Shown: piece by piece, positions 133 through 16,619 of the stretch
Layout: each line of letters starts with the position of its first letter
Position numbering within the stretch: the first letter of the stretch is position 1
Assembly: GCA_000828975.1 (NCBI GenBank)
Contig: AP014683.1
Coordinates: 355,520-387,519, forward strand
From: Burkholderiales bacterium GJ-E10
Lineage (GTDB): Bacteria > Pseudomonadota > Gammaproteobacteria > Burkholderiales > Burkholderiaceae_F
Direction of reading: 5' to 3'
DNA length: 32,000 nt
Made by a program: the position numbers and the translations under genes
The notes under the pieces: model-generated
Databases searched by the model: none
Told to the model about the DNA's origin: nothing
The model's input: only the letters and a program-made list of their open reading frames with translations

Positions 133-1236
133 ATGGCGGTGCCTTCTTCCATCCGGTTGGTCGACTCGTTTGTCTCGGTCCTCGTCCTGAAGGACATCGT
201 GGTCGGCATGGCGGCTTCCTTGTCGGCACTGGTCGTCTTTCTGGTTGTCCAGAAGTTGGTGCTCGAGCGCCACGCCCGCGCGATCGACGGCGCGATCGAT
301 CGCTACAGGCAGGCGATATCCAGCGACGCTTGGCCAAGCGATGTGACGGTTGATCTGAAGCGGCGAGTTGACCGAAAGGCTCTGGCGATGGCGCTGAACT
401 CCGGAGAAGTGCCGGTGCCGCTGGAGCACTTGCGGCGAGCGCCATGGTATGGCGAGGCAGTCCGGAACCTCAAAGAATCGGCCATGCGGGGGAAGTGGGG
501 CATGCGGGTTTTCGCTCTGGAGCTGCTCGGGAAGCTTGGGGCGGTCGAGCAGCGCCCCATGGTCGATGAGATCGTGCGACACGAATCGCATCCGCAGGTA
601 TATGCGGCCGGTTTGGGTTGCCTGGCCGAATTCGTCGACGACTCCTCCTGGCTGCGATTCCTGTGGGACCGGTTGCAGGATCGTCCGGCGCTATCGGGAA
701 GCTTCAATGAATGGCTGTTTCGGACGGCGATCGGGGCATTGACGGGGCGCCGGGGCGCTGAAGTCGCCGTTGCGGCCGTCCGGGAACTGCTCGTGAACGC
801 CTCTCTGCAGGATCCCTTGACATTGGATCTGATCTCGGCCATCGGCAAGGCGGGATTAGGCCAATTGGTTCCCGAGTTGGTTGCGCGATATGCTCAGGAG
901 CGTGCATCGAAGGCGACCCGCATTGCGTGTGTGCGTGCGGTTGGGCTCGTTCGGCCGGATCACAGCCTGTTGCTGCGCGCGTTGAGGGACCGGGATTGGG
1001 AGGTTTGTGCTGTCGGTGCAAAGTACTTGCGCGGCACGACGCCCGAGGTGATCGGCGCCCTCTCGGCTTGCCTGACGGCTTCGGCGTTTTATGTCCGGTT
1101 CAACGCCGCGGTGACCCTTGCCACGCTGGGCGATTCGGGGCGCGAGGCGCTTGAACGGGCCTTGGTTTGCCCGGACCGATTCGCCCGCGACATCAGTCGG
1201 TACGCATTGCACATGTCGCGCCCCGTCTATGCTTGA
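133..1236 (+). CDS. HEAT-repeat-like protein with N-terminal transmembrane segment (true start may be internal, near 208)
   Basis: 367-aa ORF with hydrophobic N-terminus (MAASLSALVVFLVVQKLV) and repeated alpha-helical units (VRELLVNASLQDPLTLDLISAIGKAG..., ACVRAVGLVRPDHSLLLRALRDRDWEVCAVGAKYL..., VRFNAAVTLATLGD). It overlaps the start of the following glycosyltransferase gene. Confidence 0.6.
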   Translation: MAVPSSIRLVDSFVSVLVLKDIVVGMAASLSALVVFLVVQKLVLERHARAIDGAIDRYRQAISSDAWPSDVTVDLKRRVDRKALAMALNSGEVPVPLEHLRRAPWYGEAVRNLKESAMRGKWGMRVFALELLGKLGAVEQRPMVDEIVRHESHPQVYAAGLGCLAEFVDDSSWLRFLWDRLQDRPALSGSFNEWLFRTAIGALTGRRGAEVAVAAVRELLVNASLQDPLTLDLISAIGKAGLGQLVPELVARYAQERASKATRIACVRAVGLVRPDHSLLLRALRDRDWEVCAVGAKYLRGTTPEVIGALSACLTASAFYVRFNAAVTLATLGDSGREALERALVCPDRFARDISRYALHMSRPVYA

Positions 1237-1760
1237 CGCAATCGCAGTTCTTCTACTGGCATTCCAGGTTGCGGTGTTCATCTATTTTCTTGTGCTCAAC
1301 CTTGGGTACACGATGGTGACGTCGTATGCGTTCCGAGAAGTCGAGGCGGGCGCATCGGCGGTCGGCGACCTGGACACCCTGCGCAGGCGAATGCGGGATG
1401 CAAATGTGCGGCCGATCTCGGTGGTCGTCCCGGCATACAACGAACAGGCGACGATTACATCTACGGTCACGTCGATTCTGAATGCCGAGTATCCGGAGCA
1501 TGAGGTCATCGTCGTCGATGACGGCTCTGTTGACGGAACGCTGATGACCTTGATCGATGCCTACAAGGCGTACCCGGTCGAGCGCTCCGTTCGAAGGGTT
1601 TTTCCGCACAAGACGATTGAGAAGATCTATCTATCCAGCATTCATCCCAATCTCTGGATCCTCGAGAAGGAAAATGGCGGCAAGGCCGATGCGCTCAACG
1701 CAGGTATGGAATATGCGCGCTTTCCGCTCGTTTGCACGATCGACGCCGATTCGATCCTGG
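1229..1760 (+). pseudogene. Family 2 glycosyltransferase, N-terminal part, interrupted by a mobile element
   Basis: ATG at 1229 (MLDAIAVLLLAFQVAVFIYFLVLNLGY). GT2 motifs PISVVVPAYNEQATI, VIVVDDGSVDGT, GGKADALNAGMEYA, CTIDADSIL. The native frame is lost at 1761, and the ORF continues only to 1816 inside the element. Confidence 0.95.
1756..1760. repeat. Left copy of 5-bp target site duplication CCTGG
   Basis: ...TCGATCCTGG|TGTTAGCG; matches 5356-5360. Confidence 0.93.
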
Positions 1761-1785
1761 TGTTAGCGCCCGCGGTATTTCGCGA
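1761..1785 (+). repeat. Left terminal inverted repeat of the element
   Basis: TGTTAGCGCCCGCGGTATTTCGCGA pairs 19/25 with the right end. Confidence 0.85.
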
Positions 1786-1990
1786 GCGATGTTCCGCGAT
1801 AGTTCGCGAGGTTTGAACGCGGGGTGTCCGGATTGGTTGCCCGCGTGGCGGAATGTGGAAGCGGTGGAGCGATGCGGGAGCCGGCGATCGATTGGCGGCG
1901 GCGATGCGGACGGTGGATTTCGGGGGTTGCGCAGGCGGGCGGTAGTGGGCGGCGCTGTTGCGCCGCTGCCGCTGCGGGGTGGTGGCGGAT

Positions 1991-2239
1991 TCAGAACGGA
2001 TCGAGGAGGTAGCCTGGGAAGAGGTTCATCTGCCGGGGATCCGGGTTTTGCTCGTTGATGGGGCAGTTGTCGCGCTGGCGGCGCGCGTGTCTGGAGAGGC
2101 GAGAGGCGAAGTGCGTGGCGACGAAGTCGCCGAGGGCGTAGATGAGGTCCACGAGGCGAGCGGCGTCGGCGTCGTTGATGTCGTCGTCGTCGGAGTCGCA
2201 GAGGAACGAGGGCCAGGGATCGGAGTCGTAGGCGTTCAT
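1991..2239 (-). CDS. Small acidic hypothetical protein of the mobile element (82 aa)
   Basis: ORF whose ATG overlaps the stop of the upstream ATPase gene (ATGA overlap, 2236-2239). Acidic stretch CDSDDDDINDADAARLVDLIYALGDFV. Confidence 0.6.
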   Translation of the reverse strand: MNAYDSDPWPSFLCDSDDDDINDADAARLVDLIYALGDFVATHFASRLSRHARRQRDNCPINEQNPDPRQMNLFPGYLLDPF

Positions 2240-3036
2240 GGCCGGAACTCCTCGAGAGCGGTTTGGACGTGCTCGGTGCTGACCTGCTGGGATTTAGCCA
2301 GGGCGGCGGCGGACAGGGCGTAGTGGGCGGCGCGGTTGACGCGGCGCGGCAGTCCCTGGGAGGCTTGGTAGAGGGCCTCGGTGGCGGCGGGGTCGAACAG
2401 CGGCAGTGTGCTGCCGGCGAGTTGCAGGCGGTGGGTCAGGTAGGCGGGGAGCTCTTCACGGGAGAAGCCGTTGAGGTGGTAGCGCACGACGATGCGCTGC
2501 TCGAGCGATTCGTGCACCGCCATCGAGAGGCGGCGACGCAGCTCGGTCAGACCGACGAACAGCAGCGTCAAGCGGCGCTCGGAATCCATCGCGTAGTTGG
2601 TCAGCAGGCGCAGGTCTTCGAGCACGTCGTTGCGCAGGTGCTGCGCCTCGTCGATCACCAGGACGGGGTGCTGGCGCGCTTCGGAGGTCATGCGCAGGAC
2701 CTCGGCCTGGATCGCGCGGTAGGCGCAGGCACGGTTGCGCTCGATGGGCAGGCCGAGCTGCCAGGCGATCGACTTGTACATGTCGAGCACGTTGCCGGTC
2801 GAGAGCGTGACGTAGAACAGGCGATAGAGCCCTGGGTGCAGGGCCGAGGCGAGGTGCCGGCAGGCGGTGGTCTTGCCGCTGCCGACTTCGCCGGTGATCA
2901 GGCCGATGCCGCGCAGCTCGACGAGGTGCTGCAGCCGTGCCTGGGCCTCGCGCAGCGCCACGGCGCCGAAGAGCTCGTCGGGGGCGAGCGCGCGCTCGAA
3001 GGGATAGTGGGTGAAGCCGAAGTGGGCCAGATACAT
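2236..3036 (-). CDS. ExeA/TniB/TnsC-like AAA+ ATPase (transposition ATPase)
   Basis: MYLAHFGFTHYPFERALAPDELF start typical of ExeA-like ATPases; Walker A GEVGSGKTT; Walker B VLVIDEAQHL; QGLPRRVNRAAHYAL. Start overlaps the stop of the transposase gene (TGATG). Confidence 0.92.
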   Translation of the reverse strand: MYLAHFGFTHYPFERALAPDELFGAVALREAQARLQHLVELRGIGLITGEVGSGKTTACRHLASALHPGLYRLFYVTLSTGNVLDMYKSIAWQLGLPIERNRACAYRAIQAEVLRMTSEARQHPVLVIDEAQHLRNDVLEDLRLLTNYAMDSERRLTLLFVGLTELRRRLSMAVHESLEQRIVVRYHLNGFSREELPAYLTHRLQLAGSTLPLFDPAATEALYQASQGLPRRVNRAAHYALSAAALAKSQQVSTEHVQTALEEFRP

Positions 3037-4382
3037 CAGCGCGACTCCTCATCGGGTTTATCGGTCAGCAGCCTGCGCAGCGCCAGGCCGGGGGTGGGCT
3101 GCGATCCGGGCTGGGCCTGGGCCTCCAGAGTGCGGGAAGGCCGATTGCGGCGCACGAAGCAGTTGGCGTAGGCATCGACCGGCTTGGCGCGGTGGATGAA
3201 GACGCTGTTGTGCCAGACCTCGATGCCGCGGCCGGCGGGGGCGGCCGGGTCGAAGCGCAGGGTGACGGTCTCGTTGACGAGCGAGGCATCGACCTCGAAG
3301 ACGGTGCCGTTGAGGCTGACCGTGCGATCGCGGTGCACGCGCCGCTTGGCCTCGAAGAGGAACAGGTCATCGAGATCGAGGCGCGGGTCGGGTGCGCGCA
3401 GGTGCTCGGCGCACTGGGCCCAGCGCTCGAGCGGAGTCTGTCCATCGAGTCCGCGGTGCGGGGTGCGGTGATACTCGCCCTCGACCCAGGCCCACAGACG
3501 GCGGTTGAGCGCATCGAGACTGGCGGTGTCCTCGGCGCTGAGGCGCGAGAGCAGTTGGGAGCGTACGGTACGGAACCAGCGTTCCTGCTTGCCCTTGCCC
3601 GCAGGCTGGTAAGGGCGGGCGTGGATCAGCGCAACGCCCAGCTTGGCGCAGACGAGCGCGAGGTGCTGCGAGCGGTAGTTGGCGCCGTTATCGACGAACA
3701 GGCGCTGGGGGATCGAGCGGCGCATCAGGGCCTGCTTGAACACGGGCAGGAACGCGGCCGTGTTCTCCGACAGGGCGAAGGCGCAGTACGGCACGACGCG
3801 GGTGGCATCGTCGATGAACGCGATCAGGTAGGTCTTGCGGCGGCTTGCGCCGACGCTCACCGTCGGGCCGTGCATGACGTCGCTCATCCACAGCTGACCG
3901 GGCTGCGCGTATGCGAAGCGCCGGCGATCCTGGTCGGTGGGTTGCTCGGCGCCCTTGTGCATCAGGCCGGCACGGCTGAGCAGGCGGTGCACGGTGGTCC
4001 TGGGCACGTCCTGCTCGGGTCCGATCGCGCCTTGCTTGCGCAGGGTGTCGATGAGCAGCGGGATCGACAGCCCGGGCTGCTCGTCCTTGAGGCTGAGCAG
4101 CGCGTCGGCCACGGCCTGGGGCAGCGCACGGGATTGGCCGCGGTCGGATCGCGGCTTGGGCACCAGCGCGTCGAAGCCGCCGCGCCGGTACGACTGCAAC
4201 CAGTCGCGCAAGGTCTCGGTCGCCACCCGGGTGCGCGTGGTTCCCGGGATGACGTAGGACTGTTCGGCCTTGCGGGCGAGCAGCGCGTACAGGCCCGGCA
4301 TGGCGGGCGGACGGTGGATGAGGTCGGCGATCAGGCCGTAGCGAAACAGCGCCACGGCCCGGCCGGGATCGGGCTCGGACAT
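3036..4382 (-). CDS. DDE (rve-fold) transposase/integrase with C-terminal Mu-type beta-barrel
   Basis: N-terminal HTH-like region (TETLRDWLQSYRRGGFDALVPKPRSDRG). DDE catalytic candidates in LWMSDVMHGP, LFVDNGANY, GKGKQERWF. C-terminal KRRVHRDRTVSLNGTVFEVDASLV. RBS-like AAGGAG upstream of the ATG (minus strand). Confidence 0.93.
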   Translation of the reverse strand: MSEPDPGRAVALFRYGLIADLIHRPPAMPGLYALLARKAEQSYVIPGTTRTRVATETLRDWLQSYRRGGFDALVPKPRSDRGQSRALPQAVADALLSLKDEQPGLSIPLLIDTLRKQGAIGPEQDVPRTTVHRLLSRAGLMHKGAEQPTDQDRRRFAYAQPGQLWMSDVMHGPTVSVGASRRKTYLIAFIDDATRVVPYCAFALSENTAAFLPVFKQALMRRSIPQRLFVDNGANYRSQHLALVCAKLGVALIHARPYQPAGKGKQERWFRTVRSQLLSRLSAEDTASLDALNRRLWAWVEGEYHRTPHRGLDGQTPLERWAQCAEHLRAPDPRLDLDDLFLFEAKRRVHRDRTVSLNGTVFEVDASLVNETVTLRFDPAAPAGRGIEVWHNSVFIHRAKPVDAYANCFVRRNRPSRTLEAQAQPGSQPTPGLALRRLLTDKPDEESR

Positions 4383-4418
4383 CGGATCGGCTCCTTGAGC
4401 AAGATGGGAGCCGCGACA

Positions 4419-5126
4419 CTACGGCGCCTGAGCCGGCGGATCAGCCCCCATGTGTTGTTGGTCGAGCCGTTTGCGTCCACCGGCACGAGCAGCCGGTGGC
4501 GCAAACCCGACGAACCGGGGCAACTCGTGCAGGTACTCGGCGGCAAGGGCGCGGCCGTGCACCAGCACGCAGGCGCACCCCAAATGCGCCCGCAACGGCT
4601 CGACTCGCGGCAGACAGCCCCGCAGCCGCTCGGGCCACAGCGTGATCCAGCATTGGAATGCCATGCGCGCCGGCCGCAGCCGTCGCCTCAGCCAGCGCAG
4701 CGCGCTGGGTAGGCTGATGTCGTCGGGCCGCAGCAGCGCCGCGGCCTGCGCAAGGCTTGGGGATCGCTCGACGGCGGCCACGACCCGCTCGATGTCGGCC
4801 AGCGCGCCCGGAAACCTCGCCGCCAGGCAATCGGGCAGCAAGGCGAACGTGCAGTGTCCCTGCGGGCAGTACCAGCGGGCGATCCGTGTCCCGACAGGGG
4901 TGACGCGTGCATAGGTGCCGTTTCGGTGCAGTCCGCAGCCGCCCTTCGGGTGCAGCGGACACCTCTCGAGACTTGCCTGCCGCCACCCCTGTCGGGTAAC
5001 GTACTCCTCGCTGGTCAGCCCCGACGCGAATCGAAGCAGCACCAGCACCGGCCCGGCGGGGCCGTGTACCCCGCCGGGCCACCCCATTCCATGTGATCGC
5101 GCAAGCCTACCGCCGATCGCCGTCAC
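4419..5126 (-). CDS. Cys-rich zinc-ribbon-like protein of the mobile element (DUF6431-like, recalled from memory)
   Basis: 235-aa ORF, first gene of the minus-strand operon, GTG start or a nearby alternative. Contains CPLHPKGGCGLHRNGTYARVTPVGTRIARWYCPQGHCTFALLPDCLAARF, a ribbon-like N-terminus resembling those of transposase-associated proteins. Confidence 0.7.
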   Translation of the reverse strand: MTAIGGRLARSHGMGWPGGVHGPAGPVLVLLRFASGLTSEEYVTRQGWRQASLERCPLHPKGGCGLHRNGTYARVTPVGTRIARWYCPQGHCTFALLPDCLAARFPGALADIERVVAAVERSPSLAQAAALLRPDDISLPSALRWLRRRLRPARMAFQCWITLWPERLRGCLPRVEPLRAHLGCACVLVHGRALAAEYLHELPRFVGFAPPAARAGGRKRLDQQHMGADPPAQAP

Positions 5127-5140
5127 GGTCCAAAACGTCC

Positions 5141-5156
5141 GTTGCCAAATGGCAAC
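5141..5156. promoter_or_regulatory. Operator-like palindrome GTTGCCA-AA-TGGCAAC just upstream of the element operon
   Basis: Perfect 7-bp arms with 2-bp centre, 14 bp upstream of the ORF start at 5126. Confidence 0.4.
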
Positions 5157-5187
5157 CGCGGCACAGCGATCAACATCAATCAGGAGA

Positions 5188-5212
5188 AGCGGGGGGCCTG
5201 CCGCCCCCCGCT
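5188..5212. terminator. Very stable GC hairpin AGCGGGGGGC-CTGCC-GCCCCCCGCT inside the element, possibly insulating
   Basis: Perfect 10-bp stem with 5-nt loop between the right end and the operon start. There is no U-tract, so the terminator role is uncertain. Confidence 0.35.
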
Positions 5213-5330
5213 CCCCCCGCCGCTCGAGAAATACCCTTCAGAAACCCCTCACCCCCGCCAGCGACCCGCTCTCAACCACCGCAGTCCACCGCTCACCGGG
5301 GACGCAATCCGGCATCCAGAGAATCGCGGA

Positions 5331-5355
5331 TTGCGAATTAACGCGGGAGACAACA
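5331..5355 (-). repeat. Right terminal inverted repeat of the element
   Basis: Reverse complement TGTTGTCTCCCGCGTTAATTCGCAA pairs 19/25 with the left end. Confidence 0.85.
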
Positions 5356-5360
5356 CCTGG
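5356..5360. repeat. Right copy of 5-bp target site duplication CCTGG
   Basis: ...GAGACAACA|CCTGGAACAGG; matches 1756-1760. Confidence 0.93.
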
Positions 5361-6235
5361 AACAGGATTCTCTTTTGCGGTTGGGGCAGAAATTTCTCCT
5401 CAACAAGCGCCTCGTTGCGGTTGGAGGGGCGGTCCGGGTTCTGAATGGCTGCCGCGTCGAAGATGCCAGGGTGCAGGAAGTTCGGGCTCCGAAGCGCCTG
5501 ATCGAGTGTGTGCAGGCAGCCGAATATATGCGGAGTTTTTTTGTGGGGCGGCTGGGTTGGCATCGGGTGGACAGCCTGTTGATCATTTCCGGTGCGTTCG
5601 GCGTCTTTCGCAAGGATTTGATGGCAGCTGTCGGGGGCTATCGAAAGACGGTCGGGGAGGACATGGACGTCGTCATCCGTTTGCATCGGCACTGCGTGGA
5701 TCATGGGATTGCCTATGACGTCGGATTCGTTCCGGAGCCCGTATGCTGGACCCAGGTGCCGTCGGATATCCGCTCCTTGCTTCAGCAGCGAAACCGCTGG
5801 CAGCGGGGGCTGGTGGATTGTCTTTGGCATAACCGGGACATGTTCTTGAATCCGCGTTATGGCAAGGTCGGCCTGATCGGTTTTCCCTATTTTTTCTTTT
5901 TTGAACTGTTGGGCCCGTTGGTTGAGTTTCTGGGGTACATCGGCTTTGCTCTTTTTGCGCTTTTGGGCTGGGTCAGCGTACCGTTTGCGACCTTGTTTTT
6001 TCTGGTTGCGGTTTTGTGGGGGATGTGGCTGAATGCCGCCGGGGTTCTGATCGACAATCTTGTCGTTCATCGATATACGCGGTTGCGCGATACGCTCAAG
6101 GTGGCGTTTTGGGGGTCGCTTGAGTTCGTCGGATTTCGGCAATTGGTGGCGATCGAACGAATGATTGGAACGTTCCAGCTGTCGAGAGATAGATGGGGCG
6201 AGATTCGGCGTCACCGAGTGGAGGCCGGTCGGTGA
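5361..6235 (+). pseudogene. Family 2 glycosyltransferase, C-terminal part, downstream of the insertion
   Basis: Continues the frame of 1229-1760. Contains GAFGVFRKDLMAAVGGY, GEDMDVVIRLHRH, and QQRNRWQRGLVD (Q..RW motif), followed by C-terminal transmembrane segments. Confidence 0.93.
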
Positions 6236-11420: not shown

Positions 11421-12954
<1,534 letters not shown>

Positions 12955-13080
12955 GAGATCGCGCCTCGATTCAAGCGTCCACACTTATCGGTTGTTCATG
13001 TCCAAGGCAGGGTCGGAGAATGGCGCGACATTCGGCGCGCATAGCGCAAGCGCTGTTGGCCTGAGGAATCGATGATTCTA

Positions 13081-13157
13081 GGGTCTGTAGCTCAGCCGGT
13101 TAGAGCACCGTCTTGATAAGGCGGGGGTCGTTGGTTCGAATCCAACCAGACCCACCA
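13081..13157 (+). tRNA. ileT: tRNA-Ile (GAT)
   Basis: GGGTCTGTAGCTCAGCCGGTTAGAGC...CTTGATAAG...GGTTCGAATCCAACCAGACCCACCA; encoded CCA. Confidence 0.97.
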
Positions 13158-13178
13158 GCGTCTCGCGTCTCGCTTGAC

Positions 13179-13254
13179 GGGGGTGTAGCTCAGTTGGGAG
13201 AGCGCCTGCTTTGCAAGCAGGAGGTCATCGGTTCGATCCCGTTCACCTCCACCA
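13179..13254 (+). tRNA. alaT: tRNA-Ala (TGC)
   Basis: GGGGGTGTAGCTCAGTTGGGAGAGCGCCTGCTTTGCAAGCAGGAGGTCATCGGTTCGATCCCGTTCACCTCCACCA. Confidence 0.97.
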
Positions 13255-13330
13255 CTGCAGCCTTGTCGGAGTTCATGCGCGATGGCATTCGGTGCCATGG
13301 CGCCTGACCTCCGGGTCTGGACAGAATCTC

Positions 13331-13343
13331 GTTCTTTAACAAT
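13331..13343 (+). promoter_or_regulatory. boxA-like site upstream of 23S
   Basis: GTTCTTTAACAAT in the 16S-23S spacer. Confidence 0.55.
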
Positions 13344-13477
13344 TCGAAGAAGCAAAGCGCATCGGCTCTTGATATGAGAGGAGCCGATGCCGGGTTGAAT
13401 TATTGCATTCAAACTCTCAGCAACTTGAGAAACAGCAAATCGTCGCGACATGACGGACCGGAGACGGCACCGTTATA

Positions 13478-16356
<2,879 letters not shown>

Positions 16357-16503
16357 TATAACCGTGCTGCCTCCCTCGAGGTGTTGGGGTGAGAGTGCAA
16401 TCAACCAGGTCTGTTCCGAATCGGAACAGACGCTTGCTTCCTTCGAATTGGATCGTTCGTACGCGCCGGTTTCCGGCGCGCGACGAAAGGTCGTCCGTCT
16501 TCA

Positions 16504-16619
16504 GCCTGATGACCATAGCGAGGTGGAACCACTCCTTCCCATCCCGAACAGGACAGTGAAACGCCTCAGCGCCGATGATAGTGGGATGTATTTCCTGTGA
16601 AAGTAGGACATCGTCAGGC
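16504..16619 (+). rRNA. rrf: 5S ribosomal RNA
   Basis: GCCTGATGACCATAGCGAGGTGGAACCACTCCTTCCCATCCCGAACAGGACAGTGAAACGCCTC...GAAAGTAGGACATCGTCAGGC. Confidence 0.93.

Follow-up and report, generated by a model that had tools for sequence, protein, structure and literature searches.

Target choice and the hand-off to replication by transposons that pair a DDE transposase with an AAA+ ATPase have been worked out for a few large systems, namely Mu, Tn7 with its CRISPR-guided relatives, and IS21. A compact unit of four genes in Burkholderiales bacterium GJ-E10 raises the question of what kind of element carries such a pair within 3595 bp, and of what its two remaining genes contribute. The window analysed here, to which coordinates refer unless another locus is named, is a stretch of 32,000 nt (assembly GCA_000828975.1, contig AP014683.1, positions 355,520 to 387,519 of the forward strand), in which a preliminary description had proposed a TnsB/TnsC-like transposon with a Cys-rich partner. 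Our analysis indicates that the unit is probably an autonomous, cargo-free Tn6049-like transposon, with a core of DDE transposase and AAA+ ATPase and two accessory proteins, that was recently inserted into a glycosyltransferase gene.

Boundaries of the element and the interrupted gene

The ends of the element could be read directly from the sequence, and define a transposon of 3595 bp between positions 1761 and 5355. The features that delimit it are the following:

1118-1760, plus strand: 5′ part of a host family-2 glycosyltransferase gene (open reading frame, rejoined frame and domain match)
1756-1760: target-site duplication, copy 1, CCTGG (read directly; same as 5356-5360)
1761-5355, minus strand: whole transposon, with four genes all on the minus strand and without cargo; relatives of 3387-3620 bp share its gene order and ends
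1761-1785, plus strand: terminal inverted repeat on the side of the small open reading frame, TGTTAGCGCCCGCGGTATTTCGCGA (19/25 against the other end)
1793-1807, plus strand: direct repeat of the end motif in subterminal position, TCCGCGATAGTTCGC (3 mismatches), a candidate second transposase-binding site
5331-5355, minus strand: terminal inverted repeat on the side of the Cys-rich gene, TGTTGTCTCCCGCGTTAATTCGCAA on the minus strand (hand comparison and repeat finder)
5356-5360: target-site duplication, copy 2, CCTGG (read directly)
5361-6235, plus strand: 3′ part of the host glycosyltransferase gene, with the QxxRW motif (open reading frame, rejoined frame and domain match)

The left terminus reads TGTTAGCG from 1761 and the right terminus, GACAACA, finishes at 5355, giving TGT...ACA ends. 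Compared by hand, the 25-nt ends are identical at 19 positions, and a repeat finder returned the same pair as a 29-nt inverted repeat of 79% identity. The repeat core, CCCGCGKTWWTTCGC, has exact matches in the 32-kb window at the two element ends only, and a single copy of the element is present there. At the end next to the Cys-rich gene, the pattern TGTTGT-TC-C is kept across the family. The subterminal copy TCCGCGATAGTTCGC has the same orientation as the terminal site and lies 24 bp further in; since the window would contain matches with three mismatches by chance too, it is weak alone.

Joining position 1760 to 5361 fuses two plus-strand open reading frames (ORFs) in one frame (...DADSILEQDSLLRLGQKF...). 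The fused host protein has one match to Glyco_tranf_2_3, over residues 139-327, which spans the junction at residue ~177, and contains the QxxRW motif. This in-frame fusion, together with the domain match across the junction, indicates that the boundaries are exact to the base and that the insertion is real. The boundaries of the preliminary description, with their CCTGG duplication, TGT...ACA ends and 19/25 repeat, are thus borne out, since excision restores the host frame. It had also taken the insertion to be recent and the host ORF to be otherwise intact; the perfect duplication, the intact genes of the element and the restored frame fit a recent insertion into the glycosyltransferase gene.

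A DDE transposase coupled to an AAA+ ATPase

The element consists of four ORFs on the minus strand, in the order Cys/His-rich protein, DDE transposase, AAA+ ATPase and an acidic protein of 82 aa. As the preliminary description held, all four are intact and neither the ORFs nor the domain matches reveal any cargo:

4419-5048, minus strand: Cys/His-rich protein, probably 209 aa from the GTG at 5048 (family start alignment; longest ORF to 5126)
3036-4382, minus strand: DDE transposase of 448 aa, with HTH_32, an rve core and a Mu-transposase C-terminal domain (Pfam)
2236-3036, minus strand: AAA+ ATPase of 266 aa, ExeA/GspA-like and MuB-like (AAA_22 at 1.6e-25)
1991-2239, minus strand: acidic protein of 82 aa, with a conserved helix, DADAARLVDLIYALGDFVATHF, and the C-terminal tail ...PRQMNLFPGYLLDPF (ORF and family alignment)

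The transposase gene starts 36 bp after the first gene and has an AAGGAG ribosome-binding site. The ATG of the ATPase gene overlaps the transposase stop codon by one base, and that of the small-protein gene overlaps the ATPase stop codon (ATGA); these overlapping stop and start codons suggest that the three genes are probably translated as one unit.

The catalytic residues of the transposase, D168, D231 and E267, are intact, as read from an alignment with the Tn6049 transposase. Its Mu-transpos_C match reaches 22.8 bits (cut-off 21.7), and its matches among proteins of solved structure are led by TnsB (3e-10), followed by the IS21-family IstA (2e-04). The top NCBIfam model is IS481 (204.5 bits, E 2.3e-60), whose cut-off of 224 bits is not reached; ISNCY scores 84, IS3 75 and IS21 52.3 bits (IS21 cut-off 160). 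Judged by these models, the transposase core is nearer to IS481 than to any Tn7 or IS21 model. The Mu/TnsB/TniA assignment made earlier is therefore right for the C-terminal domain and the TnsB match, and the core points instead towards IS481.

This affinity could be taken to mean that the element is an insertion sequence of the IS481 type, moving by copy-out-paste-in through a circular intermediate, with the ATPase and the two small proteins as regulators or passengers. The short TGT...ACA inverted repeats and the lack of cargo would suit this, as would the fact that IS481 is the best family model and that relatives are annotated as IS481-family at NCBI. We nevertheless regard it as very improbable: the score stays under the family cut-off, the enzyme shares its Mu-transposase C-terminal domain with enzymes that have AAA+ ATPases as partners, and internal copies of the repeat are situated at the ends, as in Mu, Tn7 and Tn552. 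Moreover, the ATPase gene overlaps the transposase gene, and the pair is conserved across Proteobacteria, Firmicutes and Actinobacteria. Plain membership of IS481 was likewise rejected, because 204.5 bits fall below 224 and because 3595 bp with four conserved genes compare with a single gene in ~1 kb. Membership of IS21 was rejected on 52.3 bits against 160, the absence of an IstB_IS21 match and an IstA match, in the PDB, of only 2e-04.

The ATPase has intact Walker motifs (Walker A GEVGSGKT, Walker B VIDEAQ). Its best NCBIfam match is to the ExeA/PEP-CTERM-type model TIGR03015 (171 bits, below cut-off), and its only significant relative of solved structure is MuB (6.2e-06); IstB_IS21 is not among its family matches. 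None of the element proteins matched the TniB, TnsC, TniQ or TnsD profiles (Pfam/NCBIfam, E <= 0.1). Of the ExeA/TniB/TnsC-like ATPase proposed initially, an AAA+ partner of ExeA type with a MuB relationship remains, and the TniB component does not.

Relatives in other genomes and their insertion sites

The order Cys-rich protein, DDE transposase and ATPase recurs in 79 genome loci; the fourth ORF has in most cases diverged beyond the reach of BLAST, and was identified from its position. The module with TGTTG...CAACA ends is present in dozens of genomes, some of them with several copies. Three complete metagenome-assembled chromosomes contain near-identical copies, with 12 loci (two subtypes) in OZ244045, five in OZ253572 and four in OZ244830, and the presence of such copies at different sites fixes the element ends independently. 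The multi-copy relatives are 3387-3620 bp long, start with TGTTGT-TC-C and end with -ACAACA, and contain internal copies of the end sequence ~60-80 bp inside the ends. Ends were defined from this multi-copy comparison and from the family-conserved termini; the inverted-repeat score alone gave many false ends.

Flanking duplications of 4-7 bp were found in 25 of the 33 copies with defined ends: they are of 5 bp in 17 copies, 4 bp in five, 7 bp in two and 6 bp in one, and the other eight copies have none. Alignment of related elements, proposed in the preliminary description as a check of the 5-bp duplication, thus confirmed it, with exactly 5 bp in 17/33 copies and with TGTTG...CAACA ends recurring in the related elements. 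The duplicated pentamers have C at position 1 in 13/20 cases and favour G or C at position 5, with CCAGG occurring twice, which amounts to a weak preference and not to a specific site. The flanks of the 33 copies all differ from each other, and no attachment site is apparent among them.

Several copies depart from this pattern. Four of the eight copies without flanking duplication are in OZ244045, and their state could reflect recombination between copies or intramolecular events. One OZ244045 copy has a 152-bp duplicate of the end adjacent to the Cys-rich gene directly upstream (L046 5602-5753), and another copy is interrupted by an insert of ~2.5 kb (L022 8790-11259). A divergent, longer relative from a Paracoccaceae metagenome-assembled genome (L080, L081; elements of 4178 bp), whose Cys-rich protein is 46% identical, starts with TGTAGG instead of TGTTG, and both of its copies are flanked by 4-bp duplications, as published for Tn6049. 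A megablast search of plasmids with the element returned no match.

The element has a G+C content of 68-71% (window 2001-5000), compared with ~60% in the interrupted host gene (1-2000 and 5001-6000), and its coding strand is markedly C-rich, with a GC skew of -0.12 (~-0.16 in relatives). GC skew of the plus strand is positive throughout the window, which indicates that the element genes run opposite to the probable direction of replication. At 11421-16619, plus strand, 6 kb from the element, there is a complete rRNA operon (16S, tRNA-Ile, tRNA-Ala, 23S, 5S).

The Cys/His-rich first protein

The longest reading of the first ORF (5126-4419) gives the 235 aa of the preliminary description. The family consensus is 207-209 aa, and most of the more than 1000 homologues have 207-222 aa and start with M-P-V-Q-L-R-F. 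The equivalent of this family start is the GTG at 5048, which is the likely start by alignment and gives 209 aa. The zinc-ribbon-like character claimed for the protein agrees with our prediction of a zinc ribbon (C56, H59, C64 ... C87, H91, C92), followed by a three-helix unit resembling a helix-turn-helix. The sequence is 100% identical to a protein encoded in the Burkholderiales bacterium GJ-E10 genome. Homologues number 1072 at 90% clustering, and 1141 clusters at 50% identity; many are on contigs of 3.4-4.5 kb, matching the size of the element.

Neither this protein nor the small acidic protein has a Pfam match. The AlphaFold model of the Cys-rich protein shows three strands followed by the three-helix unit, with a mean pLDDT of 62.6 (70-90 in the core), and the family profile found only a chance ribosomal-protein match among sequences of solved structures. 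The nearest family is DUF6431 (PF20020; gathering score 26.6 bits), which occurs in a clade of elements with a DUF6431 protein, a DDE transposase and an ATPase. The window protein does not match DUF6431 at E <= 0.1, and 3/31 homologues match only at E >= 0.2; profile-profile comparison of the two families with hhalign gave a probability of 50% and an E of 1.6e-04 over 108 columns. The two are likely to be remotely homologous, as judged from these profiles and from a common pattern, and the cut-off for membership in DUF6431 is not reached. The pattern, which the first proteins of the window, of DUF6431 elements and of Tn6049 have in common, comprises a Cys/His knuckle, H-G-x-Y-x-R, a second knuckle with T-x-S-x-L-P, and a helix ending in (T/A)-(V/L)-R-R-W. 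DUF6431 proteins also score with the HTH_28 and ISL3 transposase helix-turn-helix profiles.

In one protein of the 50%-identity library (P0414, 638 aa), the Cys-rich domain (residues 3-200) is joined to HTH_32 and rve. This could be either a natural fusion with the transposase or an artefact of read-through or gene calling, and is a hint that the Cys-rich protein works with the transposase. Loci in which the Cys-rich gene lacked a transposase were considered as a third genomic context and rejected, since they are interrupted or decayed copies.

A homologue of the first protein in RIT elements

Homologues of the Cys-rich protein turned up in nine plasmid records in a translated search. The gene lies immediately upstream of a trio of tyrosine recombinase genes, and so belongs to a recombinase-in-trio (RIT) element, in the Marinobacter plasmid pMAQU02, the Mesorhizobium plasmid pMLa, two Rhizobium etli plasmids and Cupriavidus sp. 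P-10. The homologues are full length and mostly unannotated:

L082, 4935-5606: Cys-rich homologue in a RIT
L083, 4956-5771: Cys-rich homologue in a RIT
L087, L088 and L090, from ~4456: Cys-rich homologue upstream of ritA

The two R. etli copies have in common a unit of 4172 bp bounded by a 34-bp inverted repeat, with the Cys-rich gene inside. The RIT-associated proteins show homology over their full length, with 45-57% identity, to the nearest DDE-associated homologues, of which they form the sister group in a distance tree. RITs therefore resemble the window element in their similar size, in their lack of cargo and in enclosing, between inverted repeats of their own, a Cys-rich homologue as first gene, and differ from it in using three tyrosine recombinases, without a DDE enzyme, an ATPase or the small protein. 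Their ends (GGCGCATTATCT..., with TTATCTGG repeats) are unrelated to the TGTTG ends. Membership of the window element among RITs was rejected, because it contains no tyrosine recombinase genes and only the Cys-rich protein is common to both.

The two kinds of element also meet as host and insertion. At L003 6759-10166, the transposase gene of a family member is split at about codon 18 by a 3.4-kb RIT trio, which has the reverse orientation and no Cys-rich gene (L007 is an intact relative). The junctions have a 6-bp overlap, TCGCCG, and the insertion falls within the conserved codons of FRYGLIA; the same target sequence is found at ~4324-4347 of the window (minus strand). In A. ferrooxidans, RITs have been reported within the transposase gene of a relative of Tn6049, and as of 2012 RIT mobility was without experimental demonstration (PMC3414803). 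RITs may thus target this transposon family, and an accessory protein common to DDE transposons and RITs would give a first handle on RIT elements.

These comparisons bear on the role of the Cys-rich protein in the choice of target. In the manner of Tn7 and Tn5053, it could be a TniQ/TnsD analogue that recognises a feature of the target and recruits the ATPase, which in turn recruits the transposase; target selection by the AAA+ ATPase and the zinc-ribbon protein was also what the preliminary description had suggested. A zinc ribbon with a helical DNA-binding unit is indeed encoded beside a TnsB-like enzyme and an AAA+ ATPase, the duplications are of 5 bp with a weak pentamer preference, and the P0414 fusion, taken at face value, shows physical cooperation with the transposase. 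We consider this role unlikely, given the lack of TniQ, TnsD or TniB profile matches, the diversity of insertion sites with no attachment site, and the separation of the Cys-rich gene, which has a control hairpin of its own (see below), from the coupled block of transposase, ATPase and small-protein genes. RITs have no ATPase to recruit, which speaks against a TniQ-like function of their homologue, and the earlier suggestion is not supported.

A hairpin at the start codon of the first gene

Three structured sequences were identified upstream of the first gene:

5049-5081, minus strand: stable hairpin with a 14-bp stem, between a Shine-Dalgarno-like tract and the GTG start at 5048 (folding)
5141-5156: perfect 16-bp palindrome, GTTGCCAAATGGCAAC, a possible operator
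5181-5219, minus strand: terminator-like G+C-rich hairpin, ~135 bp inside the end (terminator scan)

The first hairpin is flanked by the purine-rich tract GGAAUGGGG and by the GTG, and the 71-nt stretch that contains it has a folding dG of -40.5 kcal/mol (z -2.46). An equivalent hairpin, with a median dG of -26.9, is present in 46/49 distinct relatives, in which it follows an AAGGAG-like tract and precedes an ATG, GTG or TTG by 1-5 nt. The outer stem GGCCCGC/GCGGGCC is conserved in these hairpins, which have 28 distinct 5′ arms. The inner stems vary and yet are complementary (ACGG/CCGU, GCGGGG/CCCCGC, GGAG/CUCC), and two lineages have GGCCUGC/GCAGGCC. The hairpins were compared by folding each sequence separately and by an anchored comparison of the arms; RNAalifold on a MAFFT alignment mis-paired them, with misaligned loops. 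From its position and compensatory variation, we read the hairpin as a putative translational gate on the first gene, and alternatively it may be a palindromic site acting at the level of DNA.

The palindrome at 5141-5156 was rejected as an operator common to the family, for lack of conservation among the 12 relatives examined. The terminator scan gave one site, compared with 1.5 in shuffled sequences, a result that is not significant alone and may mean nothing; from its position, the hairpin at 5181-5219 would block read-through from outside the element. A promoter scan of the element found no sigma-70-like site.

The small acidic protein and its tail

The small protein has 1017 homologues, with a conserved helix L-S/T-D/P-E-x-A-A-x-x-x-x-x-L...Y..Q..R. 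The C-terminal residue is F in 119 of the best 120 of these homologues, 107 of which end in PF, and 106 of the same 120 contain Q-x-[DE]-L-F at 9-13 residues from the C-terminus, in the exact form QLDLF in 50 of them. The commonest final eight residues in this set are DFDDPIPF (26 proteins) and DFDDPLPF (22). Among 33 distinct small proteins read from the loci, 29 end in F and 25 in PF, and 19 have Q-x-x-L-[FWL] near the end. The protein also aligns with the fourth ORFs of Tn6049 and of DUF6431 elements, with a Pro, a Tyr and the terminal Phe in common.

Q-L-x-L-F is the consensus for binding to the sliding clamp, typically found at the C-termini of transposases (PMC4549789), and DDDIPF is the tip of E. 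coli SSB, which binds PriA, RecO and other partners (PMC5928155). The family tail, Q(L/P)DLF-DFDDP(I/L)PF, thus reads as a clamp-binding consensus followed by a near copy of the SSB tip. The full tip of E. coli SSB is DFDDDIPF, which differs from DFDDPIPF at one position. The window tail, ...PRQMNLFPGYLLDPF, retains Q-M-x-L-F and the terminal PF, with most acidic residues gone. A literature search found no paper connecting an SSB-tip-like (DDDIPF-type) tail with transposons. A relative on a Mycobacterium intracellulare plasmid (L092 1580-2989) has a DUF6431-like ORF, a DDE gene and an ExeA-type ATPase gene; no fourth ORF was seen, and its transposase ends in ...IPGQLDLLTGQEVAPQ, with the clamp-motif-like sequence QLDLL (...GQLDLL...) on the enzyme itself.

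On this basis we put forward, as a tentative proposal, that the small protein may be a replisome adaptor, in which a clamp motif and a mimic of the SSB tip would bring the clamp and PriA-type partners to the strand-transfer complex or steer the element to forks. By the same tentative proposal, the element would be the smallest self-contained Mu-like replicative transposon, and the zinc-ribbon/helix-turn-helix protein a portable module exchanged between DDE transposons and RITs. Docking of the tail on both the clamp and SSB partners, if it takes place, would link the transpososome directly to replication restart at the level of a peptide.

The tail might instead be an internal docking peptide for the ATPase or transposase of the element, or merely a disordered acidic tail, without contact to the host replisome. 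C-terminal peptides mediate contacts between transposase and ATPase in Tn7-like elements and Mu, the small-protein gene is translationally coupled to the ATPase gene, and several lineages, including the window element and a group ending in DPPF, are without a good Q-L-x-L-F. The commonest tail, in being one position off the SSB tip, is hard to explain in this way, as are the occurrence of the exact clamp consensus in 50 of the best 120 homologues, the constancy of the terminal F in 119 of them, in Tn6049 and in the DUF6431 clade, and the presence of QLDLL on the transposase of the mycobacterial relative. We hold this reading to be possible, though less likely than not.

A model for transposition

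The anatomy of the element and the analogy with known systems suggest the following course of events. The DDE enzyme, with its IS481-like core and Mu-type C-terminal barrel, would bind the terminal repeat and the subterminal copies, cut after the terminal CA, and join the 3′ ends to the target with a 5-bp stagger. The ExeA/MuB-like ATPase would coat or mark target DNA and activate the transposase, as do MuB, TnsC and IstB. The first protein, with its zinc ribbon and helix-turn-helix, would be a specificity or regulatory subunit that binds the DNA of the element itself, and not a target selector of the TniQ type; the hairpin that separates its start codon from the ribosome-binding site would control its synthesis. 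As an adaptor, the protein of 82 aa would use its tail to contact the sliding clamp of the host as well as PriA and other proteins recognising the SSB tip, and could couple the products of strand transfer, or the choice of target, to the replisome. The absence of a TnsA-like nuclease and of a resolvase favours a Mu-like replicative or repair-dependent completion.

Several observations weigh against this model or parts of it. IS481 and IS3 relatives use copy-out-paste-in, so that a replicative route is not established. The nearest matches of the ATPase, the ExeA/PEP-CTERM-type ATPases, are proteins with functions other than transposition, and its MuB match is weak (29.5 bits). A fold search of the PDB with the model of the Cys-rich protein returned no significant structural neighbour, and RITs and DDE elements, despite their different ends, have an almost identical putative recognition helix in this protein, SLPSA-[LV]-RW-x-R-R, which is awkward for end-specific binding. 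The tail of the window protein is degenerate, with QMNLF followed by LLDPF and a single acidic residue in the last 12, and by analogy with the tails of TnsB and MuA it could bind the ATPase or transposase of the element. A local GC-skew test for a replication-linked bias in orientation gave no clear answer, with 14 negative, seven positive and five near-zero flanks. Finally, Tn6049 has a module for transposition that 'could not be categorized' (PMC6210171), and there is no experiment for any member of the group.

The same logic as in the large systems, contained in 3.4-3.6 kb and four small proteins, free of cargo and abundant (up to a dozen copies per genome), would make these elements a tractable minimal model. 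Their present annotation is inconsistent ('IS481 family transposase', 'ExeA family protein', 'DUF6431', 'hypothetical'), and their recognition as one unit would improve the annotation of mobile elements.

Comparison with known systems

The window element resembles Mu, Tn7/Tn5053 and Tn552 in its TG...CA ends, 5-bp duplications, several end-proximal repeats, Mu-transposase C-terminal domain and AAA+ partner encoded directly downstream, and its best matches of solved structure are TnsB and MuB. It differs from them in its size of only 3.6 kb, in the lack of TnsA, resolvase, TniQ and cargo, in a transposase core nearer to IS481, and in an ATPase nearer to the ExeA type than to the TniB, TnsC or IstB profiles. 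Membership of the Tn7-like or Tn5053-like elements was rejected for the absence of TniB/TnsC/TniQ profile matches, TnsA, resolvase, cargo and an attachment site. As to the small protein, TnsE of Tn7 and the clamp-binding transposases of IS1634 and the Tn3 family are likewise transposon-encoded proteins with a Q-L-x-L-F-type motif near the C-terminus, linking them to the replisome (PMC4549789, PMC11417375). Here, in contrast, the motif, whose binding is putative and deduced from sequence, is on a separate protein of ~70 aa and is followed by the SSB-tip-like DFDDP(I/L)PF.

Closer relatives are found in the DUF6431-DDE-ATPase clade, whose elements encode a DUF6431 protein, a DDE transposase, an ATPase and a 65-aa ORF, and which includes examples from C. 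necator pBB2 and A. caldus mpAca1.1. Their gene order and AAA_22 ATPase are those of the window element, and the small fourth ORF ends in PF in two proteobacterial examples; transposase identity to the window is 40-42% in the proteobacterial examples (41% for the C. necator element). In contrast to that of the window, their first protein is above the DUF6431 cut-off and matches HTH_28, and it has two C-x2-C knuckles in place of C-x2-H ... C-x3-H-C. In the Geobacillus plasmid pGeo12a, the first three genes are present and no fourth ORF is evident. Plasmids of Mycobacterium, Rhodococcus and Streptomyces likewise encode pairs of an ExeA-type ATPase and a transposase of this kind. Literature searches on ExeA with IS481, on AAA_22 with rve and on DUF6431 found nothing relevant.

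Tn6049, which was named in 2009-2010, is a 3.5-kb element present in 12 copies in Cupriavidus metallidurans CH34, each with a 'gspA' ATPase gene (PMC2864759). In the P. aeruginosa plasmid pHS87a, its imperfect repeats, TGTGCATAAGCA, measure 12 bp and the direct repeat 4 bp (PMC4739549). Its copy in pMOL28 encodes a Cys-rich 'transposase' of 181 aa, an IS481-family transposase of 479 aa, an AAA ATPase of 277 aa and a hypothetical protein of 71 aa. Identity to the window proteins is 29% for the transposase (E 2e-36) and 28% for the ATPase (E 4e-18). The first proteins have no direct similarity and are linked through the DUF6431 clade by profile-profile comparison (E 1.6e-04 and 9.3e-05), and the fourth proteins, with no BLAST match, can be aligned on a P, a Y and the terminal F that they have in common.

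The novelty implied by the preliminary description is consequently reduced, since Tn6049 and the elements of the DUF6431-DDE-ATPase clade are built on the same plan of four genes, and is retained in part, given the identity of only 28-29% to Tn6049 and the uncategorised status of the module. Three features appear to be undescribed: the accessory protein shared with RITs, the tail that combines a clamp motif with an SSB-like tip, and the covarying hairpin at the first start codon. Like Tn6049, the window element is cargo-free, measures ~3.5 kb, belongs to a family with many copies per genome, has the four-gene order with a small acidic protein ending in F, and is bounded by short imperfect TGT repeats; unlike the one published case of Tn6049, with its 4-bp repeat, it and most of its relatives generate duplications of 5 bp. 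From these sequence comparisons, the window element is not a new kind but a divergent lineage of the broad Tn6049-like group, which is named though uncharacterised.

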